From NCBI GenBank assembly GCA_963746175.1, contig CAVVAH010000004.1:1349171-1413170 (forward strand): a stretch of DNA of 64,000 bases. The letters are read 5' to 3'. This document shows positions 4,007 to 50,545 of this stretch, in pieces; the first letter of the stretch is position 1, and each line of letters begins with the position of its first letter. This DNA is from an uncultured Actinomycetota bacterium (GTDB lineage Bacteria; Actinomycetota; Actinomycetes; JACCUZ01). Both the position numbers and the translations under genes were made by a program. The notes beneath the pieces are model-generated. The model was not told the DNA's origin. It worked only from the letters and a program-made list of their open reading frames with translations, and ran no database searches.

Positions 4007-6010
<2,004 letters not shown>

Positions 6011-8143: not shown

Positions 8144-8345
8144 AGCTGCTCACAGGTGACCTCCGGTGCTGGGCCGCGCCGGCGCGCGGCGTTCGGCCGC
8201 ACTGTCCCGAGCGAAGGACTCCCAGGTGAAGGGACATCGGGGACTTATGCGGCGAACGGTCGTCCTGCGCGACGAGCGGCCGTCCGCCGACCGCTCACCG
8301 CCCGCTCACCGCCCGCTCACCCGCTCGCCGCCGGAGCCCACCCGA

Positions 8346-8402
8346 CCCGTGATCATGAAGACTTCTCCGGGATAGAGGCCCGACGAACCTTCATGATCAC
8401 GG
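8346..8402. terminator. perfect 15-bp inverted repeat (CCCGTGATCATGAAG / CTTCATGATCACGGG) with a 27-nt loop, overlapping the 3' end of the MFS gene
   Basis: The inverted repeat is seen directly in the sequence. It lies between the MFS stop (8397-8399) and the DUF485-actP unit. No U-tract follows it. Confidence 0.35.
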
Positions 8403-11398: not shown

Positions 11399-11429
11399 GA
11401 CGCCTCCACAGTCATGTCCACCTGGACCC

Positions 11430-11768: not shown

Positions 11769-11815
11769 GACCCGCACCCGTCGCGGCGGCTGTGGCGGTG
11801 TCGCGGTCGGCTCGG

Positions 11816-12562: not shown

Positions 12563-12572
12563 CCGGGGTCAC

Positions 12573-13761: not shown

Positions 13762-13785
13762 GCGCCGACCGTATCGTCGGGCGGC

Positions 13786-14589: not shown

Positions 14590-14818
14590 CAAGTGGCGAG
14601 GAACCCGGGTGGGGACAGCGAACGGCGCCCCCGAAGGGACGCCGTCCAAGGGCACGTCAGCGTGGGTTACCAAGCGTGCACCGTGTGTCGGGAGACCAGG
14701 ACCAGCCTGGCTCGCCGGCCCGTACATGGGCAGGTCGCCGCGTGGGTGCCCAGCTGCCGTGCTTCATGTTCTGTGTAACGCACCGGACCCTGTGATCGGA
14801 AGCCCCCGGACCGCTCTT

Positions 14819-15727
14819 TTACCTGCCCGCGCGTGAAGTGCGGCGTGTCGTACGACCGACACGCGGGAGCAGGGCGCGCGAGGTGCCGCGCCGCCGGGTC
14901 GCCAGCCAGACGACGCCGGCAGTCGCCGCACCGGCGCCGACCGCGACGGCGGCCAGCGTGGTCGGCTGCGGCATCGAGACGCCGGCGAACCGGTCGCGCA
15001 GCCGGACCGGCCGGCTGAAGACGAGCACGGGCCAGCCACGGGTCGCCGCCTCCTTGCGCAGCGCGCGGTCGGGGTTGACGGCGTAGGGATGACCCACCGC
15101 TGACAGCATCGGGACGTCCGTCGCGGAGTCGCTGTAGGCGTAGCAGCGCTCGAGGTCGTAGCCCTCGTGGGCGGCCAGCTCGCGGATCGCCTCCGCCTTG
15201 GTCTCGCCGTAGGCGTAGTACTCGATCTCGCCGGAGTAGCGGCCGTCCTCGCCGACGACCATCCGGGTGGCGATCACCTGGTCGGCGCCGAGCAGCTCGC
15301 CGATCGGCTCCACCACCTCCGCGCCGGAGGTGCTGACGACGACGACGTCGCGGCCCGCCAGGTGGTGCTCCTCGATGAGCGTGGCCGCCTCGTCGTAGAT
15401 CAACGGGTCGATGAGCTGGTGCAGCGTCTCGGCGACGATCTGCTTGACCTGCTCGACGTCCCAGCCGGTGGCCATCGAGGAGAGGTACGCCCGCATCCGC
15501 TCCATCTGGTCGTGGTCGGCGCCGCCCGCGAGGTAGACGAACTGCGCATACGCGCTGCGCAGCACGGCCCGGCGGTTGATGAGTCCGCCCTGGTAGAAGG
15601 AGCGGCTGAACGCCAGCGTGCTCGACTTCGCGATGATCGTCTTGTCCAGGTCGAAGAACGCAGCGGTGCGGGTGGCCCCGGCGGGGGCGGCGCGGTGCGG
15701 TGCGGGGTCGGCCACCCGTCCGAGCAT
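14819..15727 (-). CDS. HAD-IB family hydrolase (SerB-like phosphatase; Rv3661-like)
   Basis: HAD motif I FFDLDKTII, motif II VVVSTSG, and a C-terminal GD...D-type motif (AYSDSATDVPML). ATG at 15725-15727. The long upstream ORF extension is not coding. Confidence 0.75.
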   Translation of the reverse strand: MLGRVADPAPHRAAPAGATRTAAFFDLDKTIIAKSSTLAFSRSFYQGGLINRRAVLRSAYAQFVYLAGGADHDQMERMRAYLSSMATGWDVEQVKQIVAETLHQLIDPLIYDEAATLIEEHHLAGRDVVVVSTSGAEVVEPIGELLGADQVIATRMVVGEDGRYSGEIEYYAYGETKAEAIRELAAHEGYDLERCYAYSDSATDVPMLSAVGHPYAVNPDRALRKEAATRGWPVLVFSRPVRLRDRFAGVSMPQPTTLAAVAVGAGAATAGVVWLATRRRGTSRALLPRVGRTTRRTSRAGR

Positions 15728-16030
15728 AGGGACGGCAAAATCCGCCGCGCGGGCGGCTGCGACTGTTTGCCATCGGGCCTCGACGGGTACATCCTGGCGT
15801 CGTGCCCTGCTCCGCAGAGCACACCAGCGCGTCCGGCTCATCCCCCCCGGGTCGGATTCGCAGACGGCCCCCGTTCTCCCCCCCGACGGGGGCCGTCGCA
15901 CGTCCCCGCTCGGTCGTGGGACCTGCTTCTCCACAGCGCCGCTGCGCGCACCGGACGTCCACAGATGGCCCCGGCAGCCCACTGCCGGCTGCCGCGGCGG
16001 GCCACCGTGAGGACCCCGTCCTCGTGGAGG

Positions 16031-17103
16031 TGCCCGTGCCCGACCGGCCCCTGATCGTCACCGGCGACCCGCTGCTGCTCGACGACCTGCTGCGGCTGTC
16101 GGCGTCGGCCGGTGTCGAGGTCCAGGTCGCGCCGGACCCGGTCGCGGCCCGGCCGGCCTGGTCCCGCGCGCCGGTGGTGCTGCTCGGCGTCGACGCGGTG
16201 CCGCAGCTCGTCCGGTCCGCCCTCCCGCGCCGGCCCGGTGTCGTGCTCGTGCCGCGGACCGGTCCCGAGGAGCGGGCCGCGTGGGACGCGGCGGCCCGGG
16301 TCGGGGCCGAGGCGGTCCAGGTGCTGCCGCAGGCCGAGGGCCTGGTCGTCGACCGGCTCGTGGGTGCCGGCGACGGGCCGGTGGCGCGGACCGTCGCCGT
16401 CGTACCCGGTGCCGGCGGTGCGGGGGCCTCGACCCTCGCGGCCGCCCTGGCGGTCTCCGCCGACCGCGTCGTCCCGGGAGTGCGCGCGATGCTCGTCGAC
16501 CTCGACCCGTTCGGCGGTGGCATCGACCTGCTCCTGGGTGCGGAGTCCCGGCCCGGGCTGCGGTGGCCGGCGCTCGCCGGCACGCGCGGTCGCGCCGCAC
16601 CCGACGATCTGCGCGCCGCCCTCCCGTCGGTCGCCGGAGCCACGGTGCTGTCGTGGGACCGCGGCGTCGTGCTGCCGCTGCCGGTCGAGGCCGTGGAGTC
16701 GGTGCTCGCCGCGGGTCGGCGCGGCCACGACCTGGTGGTGCTCGACGTACCTCGCTTCCCGGACGCGGGCGCGGATGCCGCACTGGCCACCGTCGACGCC
16801 GTGCTGCTCGTCGTCCCCGCCGACGTGCGGTCGGCAGCCGCCGCGGCGCGGGTCGCGGGCCGGCTGGCCGGTCGGGTCGCCGACGTCCGGGTCGTGGTCC
16901 GCGAGACATCGACCCGCCGGCTCCCCGCCGGCCCGGTGGCTCGCGCCGTGGGCCTGCCGCTCGGTGGCCGGGTCGGTGTCGATCCCGGGCTGGCGGCCGC
17001 CCTCGAGCGCGGCGATCCGCCGGGGCGGTCGCGCGGGCCGCTGGCCCAGCTCTGCCGGACGCTGCTCGTCGACCTGGTCGGCCATCTCGGACGCGCGGCG
17101 TGA
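16031..17103 (+). CDS. ssd: septum site-determining protein Ssd-like (ParA/MinD-like fold without an intact Walker A), first gene of the Tad-like locus
   Basis: N-terminus PLIVTGDPLLLDDLLRLSASAGVEV is typical of actinobacterial Ssd (Rv3660c-like). Its stop overlaps the GTG start of the TadA ATPase. Start is one of the GTGs at 16025-16037. Confidence 0.6.
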
Positions 17104-29176: not shown

Positions 29177-31999
29177 ATGGCCGCGAAGGACCAGGAGCAG
29201 ACCGGCACCAGGAAGCTGGTGATCGTCGAGTCGCCCGCCAAGGCGAAGACGATCGCCGGCTACCTCGGGCCCGGCTTCGACGTCGAGGCCAGCGTCGGCC
29301 ACATCCGCGACCTGCCCACGCCGTCCGAGCTGCCGGCCGCCGAGAAGAAGGGCCGCTTCGGGAAGTTCGCGGTCGACGTCGACGCCGACTTCGAGCCGTT
29401 CTACGTCGTCGACGCCGACAAGAAGAAGAAGGTGTCCGAGCTCAAGCGCGCCCTCAAGCAGGCGGACGAGCTCTTCCTCGCGACGGACGAGGACCGCGAG
29501 GGCGAGGCCATCGCCTGGCACCTGCTGCAGGTCCTCGAGCCGACGGTCCCGGTGCGCCGGATGGTCTTCCACGAGATCACCCGCGACGCGATCCGCGCCG
29601 CCGTCGAGCAGACCCGCGACCTCGACCAGGACATGGTCGACGCCCAGGAGACCCGCCGCATCCTCGACCGGCTCTACGGCTACGAGGTGTCGCCCGTCCT
29701 CTGGCGCAAGATCCGGCAGGGGCTCTCGGCCGGCCGGGTGCAGTCCGTCGCGACCCGGCTGGTCGTCGAGCGGGAGCGGGAGCGGATCGCGTTCCGCGTG
29801 GCGTCGTACTGGGACGTCGAGGCGACGTTCGACACCTCGAGCACTGAGGACGCGCGCTCCCAGCCGTTCGACGCGCGGCTGGTCGCGGTCGACGGCAAGC
29901 GGGTCGCCACCGGTCGCGACTTCGGCAGCGACGGCAGGCCGGTCGCGCGGTTCGAGGGCGTGCAGCTCGACGAGGCGGCGGCGACGTCCCTGGCGGCCGG
30001 GTTGCGCGAGTCGTCCTTCGCCGTGCGATCGGTGGAGGACAAGCCGTACACCCGTCGGCCGGCGGCGCCGTTCATGACCTCGACGCTGCAGCAGGAGGCC
30101 AGCCGCAAGCTGCGGATGACGGCGCAGACCGCGATGCGGGTCGCGCAGCGGCTGTACGAGAACGGCTACATCACCTACATGCGTACCGACTCGACGACGC
30201 TGTCGGAGTCGGCGCTGAACGCCGCCCGGTCGCAGGCCCGCGAGATCTACGGCCCGGAGTACGTCCCCGACGTCCCCCGCCGGTACGAGCGCAAGGTGAA
30301 GAACGCCCAGGAGGCGCACGAGGCGATCCGCCCGTCCGGCGACGCGTTCCGTACGCCGGGCCAGGTGGCCGGCGAGCTCAGCCGCGACGAGCTGGCGCTC
30401 TACGACCTGATCTGGAAGCGCACCGTCGCGTCCCAGATGGCCGACGCCCGCGGCCAGACCGCGACCGTCCGGATGGGCGCGACCAGCGCCGACGGGCGGG
30501 ACGCGGAGTTCTCGGTGAGCGGCACCGTCATCACCTTCCGCGGCTTCCTCGCGGCCTACGAGGAGGGCCGCGACGAGGACGAGGCCGCTCGTCGCGACGA
30601 CGACGAGGCCGAGCGGCGGCTGCCGGTGATGCGCCAGGGCGACCCGCTCGCGGTGCTCGACCTGCGCCCCGACGGGCACGCCACCTCGCCGCCGGCGCGC
30701 TACACCGAGCCCACCCTGGTGCGGGCGCTGGAGGAGCGGGGCATCGGCCGGCCGTCGACGTACGCCTCGATCCTCGGCACGATCATCGACCGCGGCTACG
30801 TCTTCAAGCGCGGGTCGGCGCTGGTGCCGTCCTGGCTGGCGTTCGCCACCATCGGGCTGCTCGAGAAGCACTTCGGCTCGCTCGTCGACTACGACTTCAC
30901 CGCCGCGATGGAGGAGGACCTCGACCGGATCGCCAACGGCACGATGAACCGCGTCGACTGGCTGCGGCGGTTCTACTTCGGTGAGCGCAGCGAGCCGAAC
31001 AAGCGGCTCAGCGGTGAGCGCAGCGAGCCGGACAAGCGGCTCAGCGGCGAGCGCAGCGAGCCGGACAAGCGGCTCAGCGGGGACAGCGCATCGAACAACG
31101 GGCTCGGCGGGACCGACCCCGGACTGCACGAGCTGGTGTCCGGCTTCGGCGACATCGACGCCCGCGAGGTCAACTCGATCCCCATCGGCGACGGCATCGT
31201 GCTGCGCGTCGGCCGCTACGGCCCCTACGTGCAGCGCGGACCGGACGGCGAGGAGTCGTCGCAGCGCGCGTCGGTGCCGGAGGACATGGCGCCCGACGAG
31301 CTGACCGTCGAGAAGGCCGAGGAGCTGCTCGCCGCGCCCAGCGGCGACCGCGAGCTCGGCGCCGACCCGTCGAGCGGCCTGCAGGTCGTCGCCAAGGCCG
31401 GTCGCTACGGGCCGTACGTCACCGAGGTGCTGCCCGACGACGCACCGAAGTCGGCGAAGCCGCGCACCGGCTCGCTGCTCAAGACGATGTCGCTCGACAC
31501 GGTGACCATCGACGACGCGCTGCGGCTGCTCAGCCTCCCGCGGGTCGTCGGCGTCGACCCGGGCGACGGCGGCGAGATCACCGCGCAGAACGGCCGCTAC
31601 GGGCCGTACCTCAAGAAGGGCACCGACTCCCGGTCGTTGGAGACCGAGGAGCAGATGTTCGACATCACCCTCGAGCAGGCGCTGGCGATCTACGCCCAGC
31701 CCAAGCAGCGCGGGCGCCGGGCGGCGGCGCCGCCCCTCAAGGAGCTCGGCAACGACCCGGCGACCGGCCTGCCGGTCGTGGTCAAGGAGGGCCGATTCGG
31801 GGCGTACGTCACCGACGGGGAGTCCAACGCGACCCTGCGCAAGGCCGACTCGGTGGAGTCCGTGACCATCGAGCGGGCCGCCGAGCTGCTGGCCGAGAAG
31901 CGCGCCAAGGGACCGGCGCCGAAGAAGCGCACGGCCAAGAAGACGGTTGCCAAGAAGACCGCCAAGAAGACGACGAAGAAGACGGCGGCGAAGAAGTAG
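29177..31999 (+). CDS. topA: DNA topoisomerase I with actinobacterial Lys-rich C-terminal tail and an internal 3x11-aa repeat insertion
   Basis: 940 aa. TOPRIM start KLVIVESPAKAKTI. Active-site Tyr region ITYMRTDST. C-terminal KKRTAKKTVAKKTAKKTTKK tail. Confidence 0.95.
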   Translation: MAAKDQEQTGTRKLVIVESPAKAKTIAGYLGPGFDVEASVGHIRDLPTPSELPAAEKKGRFGKFAVDVDADFEPFYVVDADKKKKVSELKRALKQADELFLATDEDREGEAIAWHLLQVLEPTVPVRRMVFHEITRDAIRAAVEQTRDLDQDMVDAQETRRILDRLYGYEVSPVLWRKIRQGLSAGRVQSVATRLVVERERERIAFRVASYWDVEATFDTSSTEDARSQPFDARLVAVDGKRVATGRDFGSDGRPVARFEGVQLDEAAATSLAAGLRESSFAVRSVEDKPYTRRPAAPFMTSTLQQEASRKLRMTAQTAMRVAQRLYENGYITYMRTDSTTLSESALNAARSQAREIYGPEYVPDVPRRYERKVKNAQEAHEAIRPSGDAFRTPGQVAGELSRDELALYDLIWKRTVASQMADARGQTATVRMGATSADGRDAEFSVSGTVITFRGFLAAYEEGRDEDEAARRDDDEAERRLPVMRQGDPLAVLDLRPDGHATSPPARYTEPTLVRALEERGIGRPSTYASILGTIIDRGYVFKRGSALVPSWLAFATIGLLEKHFGSLVDYDFTAAMEEDLDRIANGTMNRVDWLRRFYFGERSEPNKRLSGERSEPDKRLSGERSEPDKRLSGDSASNNGLGGTDPGLHELVSGFGDIDAREVNSIPIGDGIVLRVGRYGPYVQRGPDGEESSQRASVPEDMAPDELTVEKAEELLAAPSGDRELGADPSSGLQVVAKAGRYGPYVTEVLPDDAPKSAKPRTGSLLKTMSLDTVTIDDALRLLSLPRVVGVDPGDGGEITAQNGRYGPYLKKGTDSRSLETEEQMFDITLEQALAIYAQPKQRGRRAAAPPLKELGNDPATGLPVVVKEGRFGAYVTDGESNATLRKADSVESVTIERAAELLAEKRAKGPAPKKRTAKKTVAKKTAKKTTKKTAAKK
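30980..31078 (+). repeat. perfect/near-perfect 33-bp x3 tandem repeat (GGTGAGCGCAGCGAGCCG(A/G)ACAAGCGGCTCAGC) inside topA, encoding GERSEP(N/D)KRLS x3
   Basis: Seen directly in the sequence. Three adjacent units differ at 1-2 positions and are in frame. Confidence 0.9.
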
Positions 32000-32474: not shown

Positions 32475-35039
32475 GTGAGCACCGTCGTCGCGCCGCGCCA
32501 GCCGGTCAGCCCCGATCACGACCTGCGGGGCGTGCTGCGCATCGACGCGTTCCGCCGGCTGTGGACCGCTCTGTCGCTCTCCAGCCTCGGCGACTGGCTC
32601 GGCCTGCTGGCACTGACCGCCCTGGCGCCCCGGCTGGCCAAGGACGGCTACGCGGCACAGAACCTCGCGGTCGCGGGTGTCTTCATCCTCCGGCTGGCGC
32701 CGGCCATCCTGGTCGGACCGGTCGCCGGCGTCGTCGCCGACCGGCTGGACCGGCGCTGGACGATGGTGGTCTGCGACGTCTGCCGGTTCGCGCTGTTCCT
32801 CTCGATCCCGCTCGTCGGCACCCTCACCTGGCTGTTCGTCGCGACGTTCCTCATCGAGGTCTGCAGCCTGATGTGGATCCCCGCCAAGGAGGCGACCGTC
32901 CCCAACCTCGTCCCGCGGGAGCGGCTCGAGACGGCCAACCAGCTCAGCCTGTTCACGACGTACGGCTCGGCACCGGTCGCCGCGGCGCTGTTCGCCGGCC
33001 TCGCGCTGATCACCGGCATGATCGACAACTCCCTGCCGCAGATCGACGAGGCCGACCTCGCGCTCTACGTCAACGCCGCCACGTTCCTCGTCAGCGCGGC
33101 CACGATCTTCCGGCTCACGGACATCCCGGCCCGGGAGGCGATGGCGCGCGAGGACCGGCCCAGCTTCTGGCACACGCTCGTCGAGGGCTGGAAGTACGTC
33201 GGCCAGACGCCGCTGATCCGCGGCCTCGTCGTCGGCATGCTCGGGGCCTTCGCGGCCGGCGGAGCGGTGGTCGGGCTGGCGCGCACCTTCGTCACCGACC
33301 TCGGCGGCGGCGACCCGGGCTACGGCCTGCTGTTCGGCACGGTCTTCCTCGGGCTCGCGGCGGGCATGTTCCTCGGGCCGCGCCTGCTGCCCGACTTCAG
33401 CCGGCGCCGGCTCTTCGGCCTGTCGCTGGGCGGTGCCGGTCTCGCACTGGCGGTGCTGGCTCTCATCCCCCACCTCGTGGTCGCGGTGCTCGTGACGCTC
33501 GTGATCGGCGCCTTCGCCGGAGTGTCGTGGGTGACCGGCTACACCCTTCTCGGGCTCGAGGTCACCGACGCCCTGCGCGGCCGGACGTTCGCGTTCGTGC
33601 AGACCATGGCACGCGTCGTCCTGGTGCTGGTCCTCGCGGTGGCGCCGCTGCTGGCTGCCGCGATCGGACGGCACAAGATCGAGGTCACCGAGGCGATGAC
33701 GCTCACCTACAACGGTGCGGCGTTCGTCTTCCTGGCGGCCGGGCTGCTGGCGGCCGGCCTCGGCGTCGTCTCCTTCCGCCACATGGACGACCGGCGCGGC
33801 GTGCCGCTCGGCACCGACATCGCCGCCGCGTTCGCGTCCGAGCCGGTGGGGCGGCGGACGAGCGGCCCGCGGGAGGGCTTCTTCATCGCGCTCGAGGGCG
33901 GCGAGGGCGCCGGCAAGTCGACCCAGGCCCACGCGTTGCGCGGCTGGCTCGAGTCGCTCGGCCACGACGTCGTCGTGACGTTCGAGCCGGGTGCCACCGA
34001 GGTGGGCCGCCGGCTGCGCTCCGTGCTGCTCGACCACCCCGAAGCGGTCGAGGGCGGCGCCGGCGAGACGCCGGCACACCTGTCACCGCGCGCCGAGGCG
34101 CTGCTGTTCGCCGCCGACCGCGCCGAGCACGTGGCCACCGTGGTCCGGCCGGCTCTCGAGCTCGGCCACGTCGTCATCACCGACCGCTACCTCGACTCGT
34201 CGGTCGCCTACCAGGGCGCCGGCCGCGACCTGGCCGGCGCCGAGGTGGCGCGGCTGTCGCGCTGGGCCACCGACGGCCTGCTGCCGCACCTCACCGTGCT
34301 GCTCGACGTCCCGGCCGAGGCCGGGCTGGCCCGCGTCGACGCGCCGGACCGCCTCGAGTCCGAGCCGCGCGACTTCCACGACCGGGTCCGGGAGCGGTTC
34401 CTCGAGCTGGCCCGGCGAGGTGGTTCGCGCTACCTCGTCGTCGACGGCACCCGTCCCGCCGCCGAGATCACCGAGACCATCAAGGCGCGGCTCGAGCCGG
34501 TCCTCCCGCTCAGCGCGAGCCAGGTCGCCGACCTCGAGCGCCTGCGCGCGGAGCAGGCCGAGCGTGACCGGCTGGCGGCCGAGGCCAGCCGGCTGGAGGA
34601 GGCCCGGGCCCGGGCCGAGGCCGAGGAGCGCGCCAAGGCTCAGGAGGCGGCGGCGGAGGCCGCCCTGCGGCTCGCGGAGCAGGAGGCGGCGGTCGCGGCG
34701 GAGGAACGGCGGGTCCGCGAGGAGGCAGCGGCCGCCGAGCGCGCCCGGCTGGCCGCGCTGCACGACGCCGACGCGCTGCGGGCCCGCGAGGAGCACGCCC
34801 GGCTCCGCGCCCAGCACGCCGAGGAACGCCGCCAGCACAAGGAGCAGGCCCGCGCCGACCGCGAGGAGGCGCACCGCCGCCGGCGCGAGCACGGCGTCGC
34901 CGGAGACGACCCGCCGACCCGTGAGGTCAGCCTCGTCGACGAGCTGTTCGGTGCCGTCGACGACGACTCGTCGCCGGACTCCGCCGACGACCACACCGTG
35001 CAGCTGCCACGGGTCGAGCAGCGGCGCGACGACCGGTGA
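32475..35039 (+). CDS. tmk: bifunctional MFS transporter / thymidylate (dTMP) kinase fusion with ~170-aa Ala/Glu/Arg-rich coiled-coil C-terminal tail
   Basis: N-terminal ~440 aa is a 12-TM MFS domain. Tmk follows: P-loop EGGEGAGKST, DRY-like DRYLDSSVAYQG, and the lid region. The tail is RLEEARARAEAEERAKAQEAAAEAALRLAEQEAAVAAEERRVREE.... Streptomyces-like topA-tmk-holB order. Confidence 0.85.
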   Translation: MSTVVAPRQPVSPDHDLRGVLRIDAFRRLWTALSLSSLGDWLGLLALTALAPRLAKDGYAAQNLAVAGVFILRLAPAILVGPVAGVVADRLDRRWTMVVCDVCRFALFLSIPLVGTLTWLFVATFLIEVCSLMWIPAKEATVPNLVPRERLETANQLSLFTTYGSAPVAAALFAGLALITGMIDNSLPQIDEADLALYVNAATFLVSAATIFRLTDIPAREAMAREDRPSFWHTLVEGWKYVGQTPLIRGLVVGMLGAFAAGGAVVGLARTFVTDLGGGDPGYGLLFGTVFLGLAAGMFLGPRLLPDFSRRRLFGLSLGGAGLALAVLALIPHLVVAVLVTLVIGAFAGVSWVTGYTLLGLEVTDALRGRTFAFVQTMARVVLVLVLAVAPLLAAAIGRHKIEVTEAMTLTYNGAAFVFLAAGLLAAGLGVVSFRHMDDRRGVPLGTDIAAAFASEPVGRRTSGPREGFFIALEGGEGAGKSTQAHALRGWLESLGHDVVVTFEPGATEVGRRLRSVLLDHPEAVEGGAGETPAHLSPRAEALLFAADRAEHVATVVRPALELGHVVITDRYLDSSVAYQGAGRDLAGAEVARLSRWATDGLLPHLTVLLDVPAEAGLARVDAPDRLESEPRDFHDRVRERFLELARRGGSRYLVVDGTRPAAEITETIKARLEPVLPLSASQVADLERLRAEQAERDRLAAEASRLEEARARAEAEERAKAQEAAAEAALRLAEQEAAVAAEERRVREEAAAAERARLAALHDADALRAREEHARLRAQHAEERRQHKEQARADREEAHRRRREHGVAGDDPPTREVSLVDELFGAVDDDSSPDSADDHTVQLPRVEQRRDDR

Positions 35040-38206: not shown

Positions 38207-39754
38207 ATGAGGCGAGCGCCACCCGGCCTCGCCCTGCTCCTCGCCCTCGTCCTCCCGGCCGTCCTGGTCGTCGGCTGCTCGTCCTCCGGCGGTGCCGCGA
38301 AGCCCCGCAGCGCGCCGTCCGCGTCGTCCGGCGGTCCGTCCGGCAGCAGCAGCGCGCCTGAGCCGCGGCTGGCGCGGTTCTACGAGCAGCAGCTCGACTG
38401 GCACGACTGCAGCGGTGGCTTCGAGTGCGCCCGGCTGACGGTGCCGGTCGACTACACCGAGCCGGCCCGCGCGACGATGCGCGTCGCGGTCAACCGGCTG
38501 CCGTCCTCCGGTGAGCACCGCGGCTCGCTCGTCGTGAACCCCGGCGGCCCCGGGGTCTCCGGGCTGCACTACGCGAGGTCTGCGAAGACCGCGGTGAGCC
38601 GGGCCGTCCGCGAGCACCACGACGTCGTCGGCTTCGACCCGCGCGGGGTCGGCGCCAGCCGGCCGATCGACTGCCTGACCGACCGGCAGCTGGACGCGTT
38701 CAACGCCCAGGACGGGACGCCCGACTCGCCGGCCGAGGAGGAGGGGCTGCTGGAGCAGGGCCGACTGATGGGCGACGGCTGCCAGCGGGACGACCCGGCG
38801 CTCGTCGGCCACATGGGCACCCGGGACGTGGCGCGCGACCTGGACGTGCTGCGCGCCGTCCTCGGCGACGACCGGCTGAGCTACCTCGGCAAGAGCTACG
38901 GGACCTACCTCGGGGCGATCTACGCCGACCTGTTCCCCGCGCGGGTCGGCCGCCTGGTCCTCGACGGGCCGCTCGACCCGTCGTCGTCCGACCTCGACAA
39001 CGCGCGGGCCCAGGCCGTCGGCTTCCAGCGGGCGCTCGACGCGTTCCTCGACGACTGCCTGCGACGGTCCTCCTGCCCGTTCCAGGGCTCCCGGGCGTCG
39101 GCCGAGCGGCGGCTGCAGGCGATGCTCGACGCCACCGACGCCCGACCGCTGAAGGGCACCGGCAGCCGGCCCGTGACCCAGGCGCTGGCGACCTACGGCG
39201 TCGCGGTCGCGTTGTACGACAAGGGCTACTGGCCGTTCCTGCGCGAGGCGCTGAGCCAGGCGCTGGAGGGCGACGGCCGGTCGTTGCTGCTGCTGTCCGA
39301 CCTGTACAACGATCGCGGCCCGGGCGGCAGGTACACGACGAACACCGGCGAGGCGATCTATGCCGTCAACTGCCTCGACCGTCCGGAGCGCGGCGACTTC
39401 GCGGCGTTCCGCGCCCAGGCCGCCGAGGTCGGCGCGGTCTCGCCGATCTTCGGCGGGTACATCGTCTGGGCGAACCTCACGTGCACCACCTGGCCGGTCC
39501 CGGCCGAGGGCGAGCCGGAGCCGGTGGACGCCGCCGGCGCGGCACCGATCCTGGTCGTCGGCACGACCCGCGACCCGGCCACGCCGTACGAGTCGGCGCA
39601 GGCGCTGGCCGAGCAGCTGGACTCCGGCCACCTGCTCACCTACGACGGCGACGGCCACACCGCGTACCGGCTCGGCAGCAGGTGCGTCGACACGGCCGTC
39701 GACGCCTACCTGCTCGACGGCACGGTGCCCGCCGACGGCGCCCGGTGCGGCTGA
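38207..39754 (+). CDS. secreted alpha/beta-hydrolase lipoprotein, S33 tripeptidyl-aminopeptidase-like
   Basis: Signal/lipobox LLLALVLPAVLVVGCSSSG, nucleophile elbow GKSYGT, C-terminal His region YDGDGHTAY. GGAGGA RBS 6 nt before the ATG at 38207. Confidence 0.8.
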   Translation: MRRAPPGLALLLALVLPAVLVVGCSSSGGAAKPRSAPSASSGGPSGSSSAPEPRLARFYEQQLDWHDCSGGFECARLTVPVDYTEPARATMRVAVNRLPSSGEHRGSLVVNPGGPGVSGLHYARSAKTAVSRAVREHHDVVGFDPRGVGASRPIDCLTDRQLDAFNAQDGTPDSPAEEEGLLEQGRLMGDGCQRDDPALVGHMGTRDVARDLDVLRAVLGDDRLSYLGKSYGTYLGAIYADLFPARVGRLVLDGPLDPSSSDLDNARAQAVGFQRALDAFLDDCLRRSSCPFQGSRASAERRLQAMLDATDARPLKGTGSRPVTQALATYGVAVALYDKGYWPFLREALSQALEGDGRSLLLLSDLYNDRGPGGRYTTNTGEAIYAVNCLDRPERGDFAAFRAQAAEVGAVSPIFGGYIVWANLTCTTWPVPAEGEPEPVDAAGAAPILVVGTTRDPATPYESAQALAEQLDSGHLLTYDGDGHTAYRLGSRCVDTAVDAYLLDGTVPADGARCG

Positions 39755-39811
39755 TCCGGGCCACCTCAGCCTGTAGACTTCCTCGCCGTGCCGCGACCCG
39801 TCGCGGCACTC

Positions 39812-39884
39812 GCCGCCTTAGCTCAGTCGGTAGAGCGTCTCACTCGTAATGAGAAGGTCGTCGGTTCGATTCCGACAGGCGGCT
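39812..39884 (+). tRNA. tRNA-Thr (anticodon CGT)
   Basis: Cloverleaf read by eye: acceptor GCCGCCT/AGGCGGC, D-arm GCTC-AGTCGGTA-GAGC, anticodon stem TCTCA/TGAGA with loop CTCGTAA, T-arm GTCGG-TTCGATT-CCGAC, discriminator T. CCA is not fully encoded. Confidence 0.85.
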
Positions 39885-40173
39885 CCGCCCAGCAACCCCA
39901 GTCTTCAGTCGCGTCGAGGCCCACCTCGTCATGAGAAGGTCGTCGGTTCGATTCCGACAGGCGGCTCCGCCCAGCAACCCCAGTCTTCAGTCGCGTCGAG
40001 GCCCACCTCGTCATGAGAAGGTCGTCGGTTCGATTCCGACAGGCGGCTCCGCCCAGCAACCCCAGTCTTCAGTCGCGTCGAGGCCCCACCTCGTCATGAG
40101 AAGGTCGTCGGTTCGATTCCGACAGGCGGCTCCGCCCAGCAACCCCAGTCTTCAGTCGCGTCGAGGCCCACCT
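39843..40173 (+). repeat. tandem array: four 82-83-bp units, each holding the 3' ~42 nt of tRNA-Thr plus the same 40-bp downstream segment (first unit is the intact tRNA's 3' half)
   Basis: Units start at 39843, 39925, 40007 and 40090 (CTCGT(A/C)ATGAGAAGGTCGTCGGTTCGATTCCGACAGGCGGCTCC + GCCCAGCAACCCCAGTCTTCAGTCGCGTCGAGGCCCACC). Copies 2-4 are identical to each other and differ from the tRNA at one anticodon-loop base (A>C). Copy 4 has an extra C. Confidence 0.9.
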
Positions 40174-40177
40174 CCGA

Positions 40178-40744
40178 TCAGGCGGGCTGGTCCACCTGCG
40201 GCCGCCAGGGCTCGTGCTCGTGCGCGAGCCAGACCGCCTCGGGATCGAGCGCGCGGACCAGCCGCTGGCCTTCGGTGCGCGGCTCGTCGAGGTCGGCGAA
40301 GAAGACCGCCGTGTCGCCAGCGATGACGACCGGAGGCCCGCCCGTCTCGACGACGACCACCTGCGAGCCTCGCGTGTGGCCCGGCGCCGGGACGAGCCGG
40401 AGCCCCGGCAGCACCTCGAGCTCGCCGTCGACCGGCACGTACTGCACGCCGGGCGCCTCGACCCACTCCCGGATCGTGTAGTCGTCCTGACTAAGCGCGT
40501 CGTCGAGCTCCCGGCGCTGGACGTAGATCGGCCGGCCGGCGAAGAGGTGGTTGCCGCCGCAGTGGTCGAAGTGCAGGTGCGTGTTGACGACCAGGTCGAT
40601 GCTGGCCAGGTCGACGTCGGCCTGCGCGCTCAGTGGGCTCAGACGCGGATCCATGTCGGCCACCGCCGGGTGCAGCTGCGTCATGCCGGTGTCGACGAGC
40701 ACGCGCCCGTCGGGATGGTCGATGACGTGCACGTAGACCGGCAT
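40178..40744 (-). CDS. MBL-fold metallo-hydrolase (AHL-lactonase/AiiA-like)
   Basis: HxHxDH zinc motif NTHLHFDHCGGN plus downstream His/Asp ligands (PGHTRGSQ, IAGDTAVFF). ATG at 40742-40744 gives a canonical MPVYVHVIDHPDGRVLVDTG start. The ORF could extend upstream to a GTG. Confidence 0.7.
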   Translation of the reverse strand: MPVYVHVIDHPDGRVLVDTGMTQLHPAVADMDPRLSPLSAQADVDLASIDLVVNTHLHFDHCGGNHLFAGRPIYVQRRELDDALSQDDYTIREWVEAPGVQYVPVDGELEVLPGLRLVPAPGHTRGSQVVVVETGGPPVVIAGDTAVFFADLDEPRTEGQRLVRALDPEAVWLAHEHEPWRPQVDQPA

Positions 40745-41206
40745 CCGCTCGCCCTCGGCGAGCAGCTCGGCCACGAGGACCGGGGTGACGGTCTGCGGCG
40801 AGCCCTCTCGTCCCGCGCTCTCACCCGTCCGGGGTCCCGGGTCACGCATCGCGGACAGCCTGTCCGGTCGCCGTGGTCCCGGCGCAGTCGCCGTCACCGA
40901 TGGTCAGGAACGTGGCCATGCTTGCTCGATTCCGTCGTGGGTGGGGCGCCGCGGGGCGCGGCTGCCAGCACTATGACGTCGCAGCCGCACCGATCTCATC
41001 GGTCGCCGAGGGCCGGCGTCGAGTCCACCCGCTCCGGCATGCGCGATTCTCCCTGGCCACGACGGAGGTGGATCGCGCATGTCTGTCATCTCCCGGCCCC
41101 GACCCCTGCAGCGACGATCCGGTGAGACCGGTCCGGTCCGGAGGGTTCTGCCCCTTTCGCTGGGGGTAGGTCCGCGGCGCCTGTCCGGTGTCGAGGAGGA
41201 CCCCCC

Positions 41207-43108
41207 ATGCGCAGAGTGCTGACCGCCGTGATCGCGACCGCGCTGGCAGTCCTCTGGGCGGTGCCGTCGGCACCGGCTGAAGCGGACGGGACCAGCGGCG
41301 CCGCGACGACCGCCACCGACGCCACCCTGATGCGCTACGCCGAGCACACCTGGGCGTCGTTCACGGCGATGGTCGACACCGACAGCGGCCTGCCGACCGA
41401 CCAGCTCTTCGACGACGGGCACACCGACGTGCAGACGTCGACGACCAACATCGGCGCGTACATGTGGAGCGCGATCGCGGCCGAGAGGCTCGGCATCATC
41501 GACCACGCCGAGGTCGTCAGCCGGCTGACCAAGACCATCACGACGGTCGAAGGCATGGAGACCTACGAGTCGACCGGCCAGTTCTACAACTGGTACGACC
41601 ACCGCAACGGCGCGAAGCTCACCAGCTGGCCGCCGACCGGCAAGCCGCTGGACCCGATCCTCTCCTCGGTCGACAACGCCTGGCTGGCGACCGGCCTCAA
41701 GATCGTGCACAACTCGGTCCCGGAGCTCGCCGCCCGCGCCGGGGCGATCTACGACTCGATGGACTTCGGCTTCTACTACGTCCCGGACAAGAACCGGGTC
41801 CTGTTCCACTTCAAGCCCTCCACCGGTGACGGCCCGTGCTGCTACGACACCGTCCTCTCGGAGTCCAGGATCGTCGACTACATCGGCATCACCAAGGGCG
41901 AGCTGCCGCGCAAGGAGTACTACGGCCGCTGGCGCTCCTTCCCGGACACCTGCGACTACTCCTGGCAGGAGCAGAAGCCGACCGGCTACTGGGCCAGCTA
42001 CGACGGTGTCGACGTCTACGACGGCAGCTACACGTACAACGACACGAAGATCACGCCCAGCTGGGGCGGCTCGATGTTCGAGGCGCTCATGCCCTCGCTG
42101 TTCGTCCCGGAGGAGACCTGGGGTGCCGGCTCGTGGCGGCAGAACCACCCGCTCACCGTCGACGCGCAGATCGACCACGGCATGAACGTCGCGCAGTACG
42201 GCGTGTGGGGCTTCTCGCCGTCGAACATCCCTGAGGGCGGGTACAGCGCCTACGGCGTCGACCTGGCCGGGATGGACCCCAGCGGTATGCCCTCCAACGA
42301 GGACAACACCCTGGTGGACCACGGGTTCCCCGGCTGCGACGGGCACCCTGCGGTGGCCGACCCGCCGCCCAGCGCGTACACCGACGGCGTCGTGACGCCG
42401 CATGCCGCGTTCCTGGGCCTGCGCTTCCGCCCGGTTCAGACGATCGCGAACCTGGCGCGGCTCGAGGCGATGCCCGGGGTCTTCGACAAGTGGGGCTTCG
42501 CGGACTCGGTCAACGTCGGCACCGGCCACCCGTCGGCGTCGTACCTCTCGCTCGACCAGGGCATGATCATGGCCGCGCTCGGCAACTACCTGGGTGGCGA
42601 CGTCATGCGCACGTCGTTCTCCTCGCCCGACATCGTCAAGGCGGTCCGGCCGGTGCTCGGCGTCGAGGAGTTCAACACCCGCCCGCGCGCCTGCACCCTG
42701 ACCGGCACCTCGGGCCCGGACCGGCTGGTCGGCACCAGTGCGGTCGACGTGATCTGCGGCCTCGGCGGCAACGACCGGATCGAGGGGATGGGTGGGGCCG
42801 ACGTCCTCTACGGCGATGACGGCGTCGACCGCGTCGTCGGCGGTTCCGGCGACGACACCCTCTACGGCGATGCCGGGGACGACCGGCTGGACGGCGGGGA
42901 CGGCGCCGACGTCCTGTCGGGCGGGGCCGGCACCGACAAGCTCGTCGGCGGGCCTGGGTGCCGACCACGCCGAGGGCGGCCTCGGCACGGACAGCTGCGT
43001 GACCGACGCCGCCGACGACCAGCCTGGCGGCTGCTGACACCGGGCGCGCGCACGGGACCGGACCACGCTGACCCGCGTGGTCCGGTCCGTCTGCAGGCGG
43101 AGCGATGA
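41207..43108 (+). CDS. secreted protein: signal peptide, large DUF3131/glucoamylase-like domain (tentative), C-terminal RTX-type calcium-binding repeats; C-terminus apparently frameshifted (alternative end 43037)
   Basis: Signal [26 protein letters not shown]. GGxGxD nonapeptide repeats [63 protein letters not shown]. One extra C in GGGCCTGGG (42960-42968) shifts the last ~30 aa; the corrected frame would end ...[27 protein letters not shown] at 43037. Confidence 0.65.
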
Positions 43109-43162
43109 GTTCCTGTCGGTCCGCGCGTCTACCGTCGCGACACCGGACGACGGGAGACCTCC

Positions 43163-44569
43163 ATGAGCACCAGCACGACGACTCTCGACCTGGCAGCCCT
43201 GCGCGCCTCCGTGCGCGGCAGCGTGGTCGGCCCGGACGACGCGGGCTACGACGCGGCACGCGGCACGATGTCCGTCGCGGCCGCGGACCTCCGCCCGCTC
43301 GCGGTCGTCGCACCGGCGGACGCCGCCGACGTCGCGCACGTCGTCCGGCTGGCTGCCGAGCATGGCTTCGACCTCGCTGTGCGCAGCGGCGGCCACAGCG
43401 CTGCCGCCCACTCGACGGTCGACGGCGGTGTCGTCCTCGACCTCCGGTCGCTGGACGGCATCGAGATCGACGTGGACGGCCGCTCGGTGTGGGCCGGCGC
43501 CGGCCTCACCGCCGTCGCGCTGTCGACCGCCACCGCGGAGCACGGCCTGGCGATCGGCTTCGGCGACACCGGCTCGGTGGGGATCGGCGGCATCACGCTC
43601 GGGGGTGGCGTCGGGTACCTGGTCCGGAAGCACGGCCTGACCGTCGACAACCTGCTGGCCGCCGAGGTGGTGACCGCGGCCGGCGACGTCGTGGTGGCCG
43701 ACGATCAGTCGCACCCCGAGCTGTTCTGGGCGCTGCGCGGGGGCGGCGGCAACTTCGGCGTCGTCACCCGGTTCCGCTACCGGCTGCACGAGGTCGGCAC
43801 GGTGTACGGCGGGCTGCTGGTGCTGCCGGCCACCGCGGAGTCCGTCGCAGGTTTCGTCGTCGCGGCCGACGCCGCGCCGGAGGAGCTGTCGACCATCGCG
43901 AACGTCATGAGCTGCCCGCCGATGCCGTTCATCGGTGCGGAGCACCACGGGAAGCCCGTGATCCTCGCGCTGGTCTGCTGGTGCGGCGAGCCGGCCGAGG
44001 CCGAGGGTGCAGTCGCCCCGCTGCGCGCGCTGGCCGAGCCGCTCGCCGACCTGCTGCACCCGTCGACGTACCCGGAGCTGTTCCCGCCGGAGGACCCCGA
44101 CTACCACCCCACCGCGGTGAGCCGGACGATGTTCGCCTCCGGCATCGACGCGGCCGCGGCTGCGACCGTCGTGGACCGGATCGCGTCGTCCGACGCCGCG
44201 CTCCGCGCGGTCCAGATCCGCGTCCTCGGCGGTGCCTACGCGCGGGTCGCGGCCGACGCCACGGCGTACGCCCACCGGGCCAGCCGGCTGATGGTCAACG
44301 TCGCCTGCTTCTACGTCGGTGACGACGACAAGCCACGGCGGCAGGCGTGGGTCGACGAGCTGTCGACGGTGCTGCACGACGGCGACGACGCCGCGTACGT
44401 CAACTTCGTCGGTGACGAGGGAGACGACCGGGTCCGCGCGGCCTACCCCGGCGCCACGTGGGAGCGGCTGCGCGGCGTCAAGGCGCAGTACGACCCCGCG
44501 AACCTGTTCCACCGCAACCACAACATCCCGCCGGCCGACGCGACGGTGCCCGGCGCGCGCCGGTCCTGA
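43163..44569 (+). CDS. FAD-binding oxidoreductase (FAD_binding_4 / berberine-bridge-enzyme-like)
   Basis: RSGGHS FAD-attachment motif (VRSGGHSAAAHS), the PCMH-type FAD domain, and a BBE-like C-terminal YVNFVGDEGDDRVRAAYPGATWERLRGVKAQYDPANLFHRNHNIPP. Confidence 0.85.
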   Translation: MSTSTTTLDLAALRASVRGSVVGPDDAGYDAARGTMSVAAADLRPLAVVAPADAADVAHVVRLAAEHGFDLAVRSGGHSAAAHSTVDGGVVLDLRSLDGIEIDVDGRSVWAGAGLTAVALSTATAEHGLAIGFGDTGSVGIGGITLGGGVGYLVRKHGLTVDNLLAAEVVTAAGDVVVADDQSHPELFWALRGGGGNFGVVTRFRYRLHEVGTVYGGLLVLPATAESVAGFVVAADAAPEELSTIANVMSCPPMPFIGAEHHGKPVILALVCWCGEPAEAEGAVAPLRALAEPLADLLHPSTYPELFPPEDPDYHPTAVSRTMFASGIDAAAAATVVDRIASSDAALRAVQIRVLGGAYARVAADATAYAHRASRLMVNVACFYVGDDDKPRRQAWVDELSTVLHDGDDAAYVNFVGDEGDDRVRAAYPGATWERLRGVKAQYDPANLFHRNHNIPPADATVPGARRS

Positions 44570-45383
44570 CGGTCCTCGTGCGGTGCCGCGTCAGGAGACC
44601 GAGGACACGGGCGAGGAAGTCGTCGACGGTCGAGCGGACCTGCTGCTGCTCCGGGCCCTCGAGCATCGCGACCCCGTGGTCGGAGCCCGGCAGCATGAGG
44701 ACGGTCTCCGGGCCGGGGTGCAGCACGCGCAGCTGCCGGGCGTTCCGGCTGTCGAAGTAGCCGTCGTCCTTGCTGCTGATCTGCAGCAGCGGGCCGTGCC
44801 ACTTCCTGATGCCGGGCCGGCCGTCGAAGCCGGGCAACGTCAGCTCGCCGCCGAACGACAGGACGCCCGCGAGCCGCGGCCGCACCCGGTGCGCCTCGGA
44901 CAGCGCGAAGGCACCGCCGAGCGAGGCGCCCGCGAGCACGACCTTCTCGGCGCCCGCCGTCCGCAGCGCCTCGACCGCGAGCAACGGCACCTCGGCGCGC
45001 GGCTCCTTCCAGTCGAAGAGCGCGACCCGGTAGTGCCTCGCCAGCTCCGTGGCGTACGGCAGCCACTGGCAGATGTCGCCGTCGCTCTGCGGGCCGAGGA
45101 CGACCCCGCCGGTGCCGCTGCCCAGCAGCAGGAACGCGACGCCGTTGCCCTCGCTGGTCGTGGTCCGCACGAAGTCGCCGCCGGCGTCGGCCGCGCAGTC
45201 CGGCCTGTCGGCGAGCGGGAAGCCGTTGGGGTCCAGCTCCCGGGTGGGCGACGCGCTCGCGCTCGGCGACGAGGCCGAGGGCGGCGTGCCCGTTCCGCCC
45301 GCCCGGGTGCCCGCGTCGCTGCTGCCCCCGCAGCCGGCCAGCAGCACGACCGCCAGCACCGGTGCGACCCGTCGGACGATCAT
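44478..45383 (-). CDS. alpha/beta-hydrolase lipoprotein
   Basis: Lipobox VLAVVLLAGCGGSS, then a Ser/Pro/Thr linker. Nucleophile elbow GASLGG, His region GSDHG. ATG at 45381-45383. The 3' end overlaps the convergent FAD oxidase by ~90 bp. Confidence 0.7.
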   Translation of the reverse strand: MIVRRVAPVLAVVLLAGCGGSSDAGTRAGGTGTPPSASSPSASASPTRELDPNGFPLADRPDCAADAGGDFVRTTTSEGNGVAFLLLGSGTGGVVLGPQSDGDICQWLPYATELARHYRVALFDWKEPRAEVPLLAVEALRTAGAEKVVLAGASLGGAFALSEAHRVRPRLAGVLSFGGELTLPGFDGRPGIRKWHGPLLQISSKDDGYFDSRNARQLRVLHPGPETVLMLPGSDHGVAMLEGPEQQQVRSTVDDFLARVLGLLTRHRTRTVRTGARRAPSRRPAGCCGCGGTGSRGRTAP

Positions 45384-45450
45384 GCCCGCCACTATGGCAC
45401 GTCTGACATAGTCGGGTCGATCGTCCCGAGGTGACGGAAGGGGTACGGCG

Positions 45451-45993
45451 GTGCGCACCCTCGACTTCGCGGTGCTCGGGCTGGTGGCCCGGGTGCCGTC
45501 GACCGGCTACCAGCTCGCGGCGCGGATGAAGCGGCCGGTCGCCTACTACTGGGCCGAGGGGCACAGCGGCATCTACCCGTCGTTGCGCCGGCTGACCGAG
45601 GCCGGCTGGGTCACGGTCGCTGCCGAGGCCGGGCCGGGGCCGCACGGCAAGAAGGTCTACTCGGTCACGCCGGCCGGACGGCAGGCCCTGGGGGAGTGGG
45701 CCGTGCAGCCCCCGGTGGACCCCGCCGCGCGCGACGAGCTGGTGCTGAAGGTCTCGTCGCTGTGGGCCGCCCGGCCGACGGCGGCGATCGTCATGCTCGC
45801 TGCCGAGGCCCGCCGGTGGGAGGTCAAGCGGACGGAGCTGGCCGACGTCGTCGCCCGGCTGGAGGAGGCGGGGGACCCCGTCGGCTCCGCAGGCTGGTTC
45901 AGCCTGCAGACCGCCCTGCGCGGTCGTGACTACGCACGCGGCCGACGCGACTGGTGCCGACGGGTCGCGAGGGGCCTCTCGGGTGACGAATGA
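45451..45993 (+). CDS. PadR-family transcriptional regulator
   Basis: Winged-HTH region FAVLGLVARVPSTGYQLAARM...IYPSLRRLTEAGWV...KKVYSVTPAGRQAL. Divergent from the lipoprotein gene, 68 bp apart. Confidence 0.85.
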   Translation: MRTLDFAVLGLVARVPSTGYQLAARMKRPVAYYWAEGHSGIYPSLRRLTEAGWVTVAAEAGPGPHGKKVYSVTPAGRQALGEWAVQPPVDPAARDELVLKVSSLWAARPTAAIVMLAAEARRWEVKRTELADVVARLEEAGDPVGSAGWFSLQTALRGRDYARGRRDWCRRVARGLSGDE

Positions 45994-49184: not shown

Positions 49185-50545
49185 CCGAATCCTCACCGAC
49201 AGCCACGTCGAAACCGCGGTCAACCACGGCGTCCGCGTGCGCGCGGGCGACGCGCTCGATGACGTCGGCACCGGCCGTCAGGCCGTCCCTCGCCCGTACC
49301 CGCTCGCCGACGGCGGCCAGGCGGGACCGCACCGACGGGTCGAGCACCGTCTCGAGCGCCGCCGAGAGCTGCTCGGCCGTGAAGGAGTACGTCGGCAGCC
49401 GCACGCCGAAGCCCAGCTCGTCCATCCGCTGCGCGTTGTCGTACTGGTCCCAGAACAGCGGCAGCAGCACCATCGGCTTGCCGAAGTGCAGCGACTCGGT
49501 GACGGTGTTGTTGCCGCCGTGGGTGACTACCGCGTCGACCTGCGGCACGATCCGCGTCTGCGGGAGCGAACTCCGCGCCGACCATGTTGTCGGCGAGCTC
49601 GTACTCCGCGTGCAGCGGGCCGGTGCTCACGACGTAGCGGTGGGGGGTGTCGACCGAGCACCTCGACGAGACGGCGCATCAGGTCGACGTCGCGCTGCCC
49701 GAGCGAGCCGAGCGACAGGTAGACGAGCGCGCTGCCGTCGGCCGGTCGCGCGACGCCGTCGGGCAGCTCGTAGTCCTCGTCGGTGCCGCGGACGCTCGAG
49801 TCCATCCGGTGCCACGTCGGGCCGAGCGGCCGGGCGTCGGTGTAGTCGGCTTCCTCCGGGAAGACGTAGAGGTTCGCCGTCTCGGACGTGGTGCACGAAC
49901 TCCAGGTCCGGCAGGTGCGGCGCGCCCTGCTCCACGACCCAGACGTCGAACGCCTCCCACGTCTCGCGGTGCGTGCGGTCGTACTCGCGTGCGGAACGCC
50001 GCCCACTCGCTGCGGTCGTCGGCCGGCAGGCCGGAGAACACTGGTGCGCACGTCCGGACCGCGCCACCTCGAGCGGGTTGCACGACACGATCCGCACGTA
50101 CGGCGCGCCGGACGTGAGCAGCGCCGGGAAGCCGACGACGTTGTCCAGGACGACGACGTCGGGCCGGGCCCGCGCGAGGATCTCGCGCAGCCGCGGCTCG
50201 CAGTACTTCGCGCCCGGCGATCAGGGCCTGCCACGTCGGCAGGACGAACGTCGACAGCTGCTCGACCGTCGGCTTGCGGAACTCCGGCGCGGTCTCGCGG
50301 ATGAAGTCCTTCCAGAACTGCCCGGCGTCCTGGCCGACGCGTCGGCGTCCGACGGCGGGGCCAGGTCGACGAGGTCCTCCTCGAAGCCGAGCGCCTCGAG
50401 CTGCCCCTCCAGGACGCCTCGGCCGCGAAGAGGACCCGGTGCACGCAGCGGCGAGCACGTCACCGAGGCCGATGCACTGGTTGGTCGGGCCGTACGCCGA
50501 CTCCGGCATGAACAGGATCGTGAGGGGCGCGGGCCCGACGGCCGG
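49093..50545 (-). pseudogene. UDP-glycosyltransferase (GT1, macrolide-glycosyltransferase-like) remnant broken into at least 6 reading-frame segments
   Basis: Recognisable pieces in N-to-C order: MPESAYGPTNQCIGLGDVLAAA; LEGQLEALGFEEDLVDLAP; GQFWKDFIRETAPEFRKPTVEQLSTFVLPTWQALIAG; RIVSCNPLE...EYDRTHRETWEAFDVWVVEQGAPHLPDLEFV; TANLYVFPEEADYTDARPLGPTWHRMDSSVRGTDEDYELP...ALVYLSLGSLG; STGPLHAEYELADNMVGAEF; PQVDAVVTHGGNNTVTESLHFGKPMVLLPLFWDQYDNAQR. One junction sits at a G6/C6 run (49642-49647). Confidence 0.65.

Follow-up and report, generated by a model that had tools for sequence, protein, structure and literature searches.

A head-to-tail array of tRNA-Thr(CGT) halves in an uncultured soil actinobacterium, a probable relic of site-specific integration

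In an uncultured soil actinobacterium, three partial copies of a tRNA gene are stacked head-to-tail directly 3' of the intact tRNA-Thr(CGT) gene. The array lies within a 64-kb stretch of DNA with a G+C content of 73.5%, hereafter called the window, and only a 40-nt segment (S) lies between successive tRNA halves. The array is probably a non-functional, tandemly amplified relic of site-specific integration at tRNA-Thr(CGT). The arguments for this origin come from the attachment-site signature of the copies and from the state of the same locus in related genomes.

Integrative and conjugative elements of actinomycetes (AICEs) and phages use tyrosine integrases that recombine at attachment (att) identity segments overlapping the 3' ends of tRNA genes; pSE101 uses a Thr-tRNA, and tandem or serial integration leaves att copies in series (PMC2440964). 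Partial tRNAs are recognised relics of old integrations (PMC9897764; bioRxiv 10.1101/2020.12.28.424599).

Anatomy and attachment-site signature of the array

The window contains a single tRNA gene, called as tRNA-Thr(cgt) at 39812-39886 by ARAGORN and scored at 74.8 bits (E 9e-16) over 39812-39884 by the Rfam model RF00005. Tandem Repeats Finder (TRF) reports a repeat with a period of 82, 4.0 copies, 98% matches and a score of 648 over 39843-40174. These three programs agree with a preliminary description of the DNA, which had noted a tRNA-Thr followed by three tandem copies of its 3' half, each with a 40-bp segment, at a period of 82 bp. The array was then thought to end at 40173; it is indeed found there, but the repeat continues for 3 nt beyond unit 4, to 40174. 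Its parts are as follows.

39812-39884, + strand: functional tRNA-Thr(CGT); loop CTCGTAA at 39843-39849, A37 at 39848, discriminator T at 39884
39843-39924, + strand: repeat unit 1; tRNA from C32 to the 3' end, then S (39885-39924), from TRF and alignment
39925-40006, + strand: repeat unit 2; loop CTCGTCA, C37 at 39930, 3' part 35/35, S 40/40
40007-40089, + strand: repeat unit 3; C37 at 40012, 83 nt, one extra C in a C-run (GGCCCCAC)
40090-40171, + strand: repeat unit 4; C37 at 40095, complete S matching the other units
40172-40174, + strand: 3-nt stub CTC, equal to the start of a further unit; homology stops after it

The gene does not encode CCA, and CCG follows the discriminator. Two unit probes of 22-27 nt each match just the four array sites in the 64 kb, where 0 matches are expected from shuffled sequences. 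Units 2-4 share the loop CTCGTCA (A37 to C), and S matches in them at 38-40 of its 40 positions. The copies had been described as identical to one another and one anticodon-loop base away from the tRNA; the difference at position 37 stands, but unit 3 departs from the others by its extra C. This base may be a homopolymer error, and such C-run differences also vary among long-read assemblies of the same species. The terminal CTC stub represents either microhomology or the start of a fifth unit, truncated and otherwise lost.

Aligned to the tRNA, the partial copies match at 35/35 positions 3' of the anticodon loop and at 10-12 of 31 positions 5' of it, the latter being background level, and the boundary of tRNA identity falls at C32/U33. 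So sharp a step at the loop argues for an att-core junction and against the uniform decay of a plain duplicate.

The same locus was located in other assemblies with, as synteny anchor, a TAP-like alpha/beta hydrolase gene whose orthologues lie directly upstream of tRNA-Thr(CGT) in all congeners. A scan of a genome collection with the hydrolase returned 11 loci, the window's own species not among them; the closest relatives are uncultured Actinomycetota in ENA metagenome assemblies, those with a label being Microflora Danica (MFD) metagenome-assembled genomes. The A37 to C change is present in all partial copies of the window species, of its sister species (locus L026) and of a further congener (L003), and also in the distal tRNA half of a congener without an array, L017 (78%). 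There, the distal half (CTCGTCATGCGT... / CTCGTCATGCGTAGG...) lies 2654 bp from the tRNA and is followed by native-type hairpin flank. The intervening 2.65 kb are absent from other congeners and encode a sigma-70 factor, a 356-aa protein and, adjoining the tRNA, a weak integrase-like C-terminal remnant.

The same base marks tRNA halves elsewhere. A scan of metagenome contigs built to find C37 halves yielded seven unrelated contigs with isolated halves that have non-tRNA left flanks of up to 3.1 kb; none is called as a tRNA, and three tRNA sequence variants occur among them. One extra base after C32 (context CAC-N-TCGTCATG) accompanies 7 of 11 C37 halves. In L020 (1005-1034; Ga0126378_10390455), an isolated C37 half ends in a 15-nt local duplication (GATAGGCGGCTCCAC GATAGGCGGCTCCAC), a small product of slippage at yet another att-type tRNA end.

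Bona fide att repeats at tRNA-Thr(CGT) are provided by Plantibacter, in which islands of 5.1 kb (L010) and 3.5 kb (L012) are bounded by direct repeats. These extend from the anticodon stem to the tRNA 3' end and on into the flank, of whose next 40 bases they include 37-38, and each has one mismatch close to the loop; a unit composed of a 3' half and ~40 nt of flank is therefore normal for real att repeats at this gene. An intact tyrosine integrase (PF00589, 5e-24) adjoins the tRNA in L012. No integrase was detected in L010, where a 321-aa open reading frame (ORF) beside the tRNA gave no Pfam integrase match. The L010 island (11173-16249; Plantibacter sp. ME-Dv--P-122b) includes a 422-aa SIR2_2 protein (1.1e-7) among neighbours without Pfam match, and may carry a small defence cargo. 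Related genomes had been named in the preliminary description as the place to look for an integrase-bearing island at this tRNA; L012 has one with an intact integrase, whereas the congener L017 has a weak remnant only.

Scans of viral contigs, with the C37 half and with the left arm of a family formed by L019, L021 and L025, revealed no attP. Similarly, blastn against phage and plasmid collections returned only ordinary tRNA-Thr-like matches, and neither S nor a matching attP. As for S itself, a decayed tRNA 5' half would be one candidate source, since its 3' part aligns in register with the D-arm (TCAGTCG-GTAGAG / TCAGTCGCGTCGAG; p ~0.02). An alternative alignment of S, to the native flank of relatives, is of comparable quality.

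Copy number in relatives and formation of the array

Four conspecific assemblies from different samples, with 98-99.4% nucleotide identity to the window or to each other, differ in the number of units that their consensus sequences hold: 4 in the window, 4 in L030, 3 in L001/L031 and 3 in L002, the last two comprising the tRNA and two partial copies. The sister species L026 (91% identity, from a JGI metagenome) also has the tRNA and two partial copies, with C37 and a 79-bp period. The 5' part of S differs from that of the window. Within L026, both proximal S segments have the same sequence, and what flanks the distal copy is a roughly 75% diverged version of this spacer, as would be expected had the proximal units arisen by recent duplication from an older pair. 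L003/L004 (same contig; hydrolase 81% identical in amino acids) has a single partial copy after the tRNA, with a period of ~125 bp. This copy matches the tRNA of its own species (TGCGT stem, GACTCC loop), with C37, and the spacer holds a terminator-like hairpin; the entire block of genes that follows the array in the window, from a metallo-beta-lactamase-fold (MBL) gene to a PadR gene, is missing. A single tRNA without any partial copy is found in L015/L016, L018 and L027-L029 (73-75%).

Arrays are thus known from three species of the genus, namely the window species and those of L026 and L003. Units are homogeneous within a genome and diverged between species. S is not conserved across species and, among all fetched loci, occurs only in the arrays of the window species and L026. 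With homologous arrays in two related species, the array is older and more persistent than the preliminary description implied; that description had also considered a conserved structured element present in many unrelated genomes, and the comparison revealed nothing of the kind. The gap between tRNA halves measures 2.65 kb in L017, ~83 nt in L003 and 36-40 nt in L026 and the window, a shrinkage that is compatible with progressive decay without proving it.

Could the array be an artefact, a long-read assembler having expanded a single att scar, or no scar at all? Related long-read metagenome assemblies are noisy in indels, as the fragmented genes of L001 and the C-run differences attest, and the unit count varies from assembly to assembly. 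However, at least three units are present in four conspecific assemblies from different samples, homologous arrays occur in L026, from an independent JGI metagenome, and in L003, another species, and the 330-bp array is much shorter than typical long reads, so that we judge this explanation very improbable. In L001 (ERZ25039485 contig_3986, 247-9851), the topA, tmk and holB genes, intact in the window and in L002, are split; this indicates indel errors, and single-base C-run differences between units should therefore not be over-read.

The following course of events is proposed. Judging from the comparison with relatives, a tyrosine-integrase element, prophage-like or AICE-like, would once have integrated in the 3' half of tRNA-Thr(CGT). 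Its attP core would have read CAC-N-TCGT-C-ATG..., that is, with an extra base after C32 and with C in place of A37. Tyrosine recombinases require identity across a 6-8-bp overlap region. Because no more than four identical bases (TCGT) lie between the extra base and C37, the crossover would have taken place 3' of position 37; the working tRNA (attL) would hence have kept A37, and the distal attR the C37 of the element, joined to a perfect tRNA 3' part and flank.

In a second and weakest step, the element would have been lost by deletion and decay, leaving attL and attR separated by the 40 nt of S, which could be what remains of the element arms after their fusion, or else native flank within a long att identity segment. 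The first head-to-tail pair may have arisen by near-complete deletion of the element, or by slippage on an att segment spanning the tRNA half and its flank. Misaligned homologous recombination or replication slippage, at first between the 43-nt halves and later between 82-bp units, would then have expanded and contracted the array; this step is supported by the units themselves, since it would produce identical units within a genome and differing counts between strains and species. Finally, an MBL insertion appears to have truncated the distal array end in the window species, a step supported by the sister species, and the simplest reading is that the insertion cut the distal end of a longer or older array.

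Amplification of an already diverged att-like unit, by unequal recombination or slippage, was also the interpretation put forward in the preliminary description. It gains from the presence of C37 in the L017 distal half and in the seven metagenome halves, and from the identity of the units. Three independent integrations, which that description had set aside, would amount to accretion with the later loss of each element. Serial integration at one tRNA is known and leaves one att copy between elements (PMC2440964; 10.1101/2020.12.28.424599), but here all junctions and S segments are identical, and three separate deletions would not share endpoints. As the unit count moreover changes among near-identical strains (4, 4, 3 and 3), accretion can be considered extremely improbable.

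A relic of integration is not favoured by every observation, and several weigh against it. As reported before, no integrase is present in the window, neither by Pfam on the flanking genes nor by tblastn with the L012 integrase (no match below E 1). The 64 kb likewise contain no element DNA, and no further tRNA half or distal att copy. Legitimate excision or homologous recombination leaves one att copy, and an adjacent pair needs an extra, unobserved deletion or slippage. The presence of S after every unit, including the last, together with the CTC stub, also fits a simple duplication by way of microhomology, with CA|CTC where the array starts and CAC|CTC where it ends. In addition, the integrase-like remnant of L017 is weak (BLASTP E 0.004 against a bona fide integrase, nothing in Pfam), the metagenome scan for C37 halves gives no frequency relative to A37 halves, and copy numbers were read from consensus metagenome assemblies and not from individual reads.

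Part of these observations would be explained by a plain tandem duplication of native DNA without any mobile element, in which replication slippage or microhomology, involving CA-CTC of the anticodon loop and CAC-CTC of the downstream flank, created an 82-bp copy that acquired the A37 to C change and was amplified. Short matching sequences do occur, with TCTCA|CTCGT where the array begins, CCCAC|CTCGT at each of its junctions and CCCAC|CTCCG where it stops; S follows each unit, the last included; integrase and element DNA are absent from the window; and parts of S resemble native flank, with CCACCTCCGA(T/C)C in L018 and GTTCGTCGGGTCAGG in L017. A duplication of this type would, however, require its breakpoint to coincide within 1 nt with the att boundary of L017, and its substitution to equal the A37 to C change of the L017 distal half and of seven metagenome halves, often with the extra base too. 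By a rough estimate, the joint probability of both coincidences would be < 1e-3. It would also leave unexplained the integrations demonstrably hosted by the same tRNA in relatives. We therefore regard plain duplication as unlikely and retain the amplified integration relic as the favoured origin of the array.

Selection on the copies and relation to known systems

Folding was compared between the gene and its copies. The tRNA cloverleaf has a minimum free energy of -29.6 kcal/mol (z -2.4), whereas the folds of the units are no more stable than those of shuffled sequence (z -0.95 and +0.10), although each keeps an intact T-arm hairpin. No partial unit is called as a tRNA by ARAGORN, and the Rfam tRNA model matches only 39812-39884 at E<=1; the only Rfam matches of the partial units stay below threshold (22 bits, where the gathering score is 65.7) and concern an unrelated plastid family. 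A structured RNA or pseudo-tRNA was rejected on the lack of a tRNA call and on the shuffle-like fold. No promoter or terminator consensus was found in 39400-40600, and a promoter or terminator role was rejected as well.

The conspecific assembly L030 (ERZ25039511 contig_5464, reverse strand, ~2634-2710) offers a view of selection on the two kinds of sequence. In its working tRNA, the D-loop carries an insertion (GGCTAGAGC) and the 27-43 pair has changed in a compensatory manner, from TCTCA/TGAGA to ACTCA/TGAGT; the three partial copies retain the window-type sequence. The copies did not follow the change in the tRNA, and selection therefore sees the real gene only. The three changes of the L030 tRNA fall within ~20 nt of a region otherwise 99% identical to the window, which suggests an allele replacement or rapid compensatory evolution.

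These data bear on the idea that the array is kept by selection, whether as spare or decoy attB landing pads, as a copy-number substrate of an integrase, or as a transcribed T-arm decoy or 3'-processing/termination element. The array persists in three species (the window species, L026 and L003), every unit contains the complete att-type segment of the Plantibacter att repeats, and the T-arm hairpin is intact in all of them. Yet L015, L018 and L027 live without a partial copy and L017 with a distant half only and no array, S is not maintained between species, and neither the folds, the tRNA searches and the consensus scans nor the L030 copies betray a constrained sequence; maintenance by selection is accordingly quite improbable. 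We give similarly little credence to the more specific proposal that the stacked units are working att sites kept as a multi-site landing pad or decoy, with an integrase acting in trans on misaligned cores, besides general recombination, to alter their number. Were the landing-pad proposal true, the stack would influence how often and where elements enter a hypervariable locus.

Three types of known systems resemble the array, considered here as an amplified integration relic. In the AICEs pSAM2, SLP1 and pSE101 (Thr-tRNA) and in temperate phages, tyrosine integrases acting at tRNA 3' ends create the direct repeats attL and attR. As in these, a partial tRNA reaching from the anticodon loop through the 3' end into the flank lies in direct orientation downstream of the intact gene, with a point difference near the core; unlike these, the window has no element or integrase between the copies, three of which abut head-to-tail. 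Serial integration at one tRNA is exemplified by AICESav3728/AICESav3708, with a 44-bp att between them, and by the tycheposon islands of Prochlorococcus, with scattered partial tRNAs. The array likewise presents att-type tRNA fragments in series 3' of a single tRNA in a variable genome region. There, however, kilobases separate the fragments and each fragment represents one event, whereas here the units are identical and contiguous, which indicates one scar amplified locally. Lastly, bacterial minisatellites, or variable-number tandem repeats, share with the array a constant period, near-identical units, a polymorphic count (4, 4, 3, 3) and, in L026, a diverged distal unit; what sets the array apart is that a functional tRNA gene and an att-type junction seed and anchor its unit, and that selection acts on the first unit, which belongs to the tRNA.

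A literature search for explicit head-to-tail arrays of att sites or tRNA halves found only general accounts of tRNA fragments and of serial integration. The array reveals neither a new kind of system nor a new mechanism and is an unusual variant of what is known from att relics, from serial att copies and from bacterial tandem repeats. It offers a natural example of an integration scar that outlives its element, multiplies locally and persists through speciation. The usual reading of partial tRNAs takes each fragment as the mark of one island boundary, a rule from which the array departs, and programs that map islands or annotate tRNAs with such fragments as boundaries would call arrays of this kind wrongly. 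Furthermore, the signature of C37 and the extra base is a sequence tag for an element family targeting tRNA-Thr(CGT) in soil Actinomycetota. The array marks this gene, in an uncultured genus and beside a hypervariable gene interval, as an integration hot spot, with no live element in the window.

Gene neighbourhood and further observations

The array is flanked by conserved and variable DNA. Upstream lies a conserved actinobacterial block consisting of topA, a fusion of an MFS transporter with thymidylate kinase, holB, a glycerol-3-phosphate-dehydrogenase-like gene and the TAP-like hydrolase gene; a 515-aa protein 100% identical to the window hydrolase was found (P0001). Downstream, a conserved block with Scy-like, NlpC_P60 and pyrophosphatase genes lies 3' of PadR, and the interval from the tRNA to the Scy-like gene differs in content in every species compared. 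The features next to the array are the following.

38207-39754, + strand: TAP-like alpha/beta hydrolase gene; Pfam Abhydrolase_4 4e-32, Abhydrolase_1 6.6e-26
40178-40849, - strand: MBL gene; Pfam Lactamase_B 2.4e-23, convergent, adjoining the distal array end
40175-45982, no strand assigned: variable interval with MBL, glycoamylase-RTX, BBE oxidase, 261-aa protein and PadR, from Pfam

The array end (40174) is 3 nt short of the stop codon of the convergent MBL gene (40178-40180). This gene is present in all four assemblies of the window species (223-239 aa), and its segment (~40175-41110) alone is specific to that species. In the sister species L026 the MBL gene is absent, and the array runs straight into the homologue of window positions 41111-41227, the upstream region of the glycoamylase gene. 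The MBL gene is a species-specific insertion and lies outside the repeat. The motif CGATC(A/C)GG occurs at both junctions of the segment (40175-40182 and ~41116-41123), as a possible short direct repeat or by coincidence.

The remainder of the interval has a different history. The glycoamylase/RTX-BBE genes are common to the window and L015, and the genes for BBE, a 259-aa protein and PadR to the window and L027; most of the 6-kb block is therefore old and has been differentially lost. The preliminary description had regarded this block as accessory, which is correct in that the interval varies across the genus, but most of it is shared with congeners and the MBL gene alone is species-specific. 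Homology to L003 picks up again at ~45980 without any tRNA fragment there, and no distal att copy marks the right end of the block; for these reasons, the block from MBL to PadR was rejected as a bounded island. Base composition revealed no obvious foreign segment in the window.

Additional variation was observed away from the array. Between the gene for a 229-aa protein and the pyrophosphatase gene, the window holds a 1.34-kb segment (49190-50528) that is absent from the conspecific L001 and L002 and from L003. Its ORFs have no Pfam match and clear terminal repeats were not found; the segment represents gene-content variation within the species.

Positions 30979-31080, in the C-terminal part of the topoisomerase I gene (29177-31999), form a 33-bp tandem repeat of 3.1 copies (97% matches, TRF score 190). 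Alignments to L001, L003 and L027 break at this repeat, and ~90-125 nt are missing in them, so that it is a coding repeat expansion variable within and between species. Inside the topoisomerase I coding region of L003 (3092-3183) and L004 (1924-2015), ARAGORN reports a 'tRNA-Ala(cgc)' of 92 nt; the coding sequence there is GC-rich and repeat-like, and the call is almost certainly spurious. The MFS-thymidylate kinase fusion of the upstream block is encoded by one 854-aa ORF (32475-35039) with an N-terminal MFS transporter (MFS_1/MFS_3) and a C-terminal thymidylate kinase, and the same fusion is also called in the congeners L003, L015, L017, L018 and L027.

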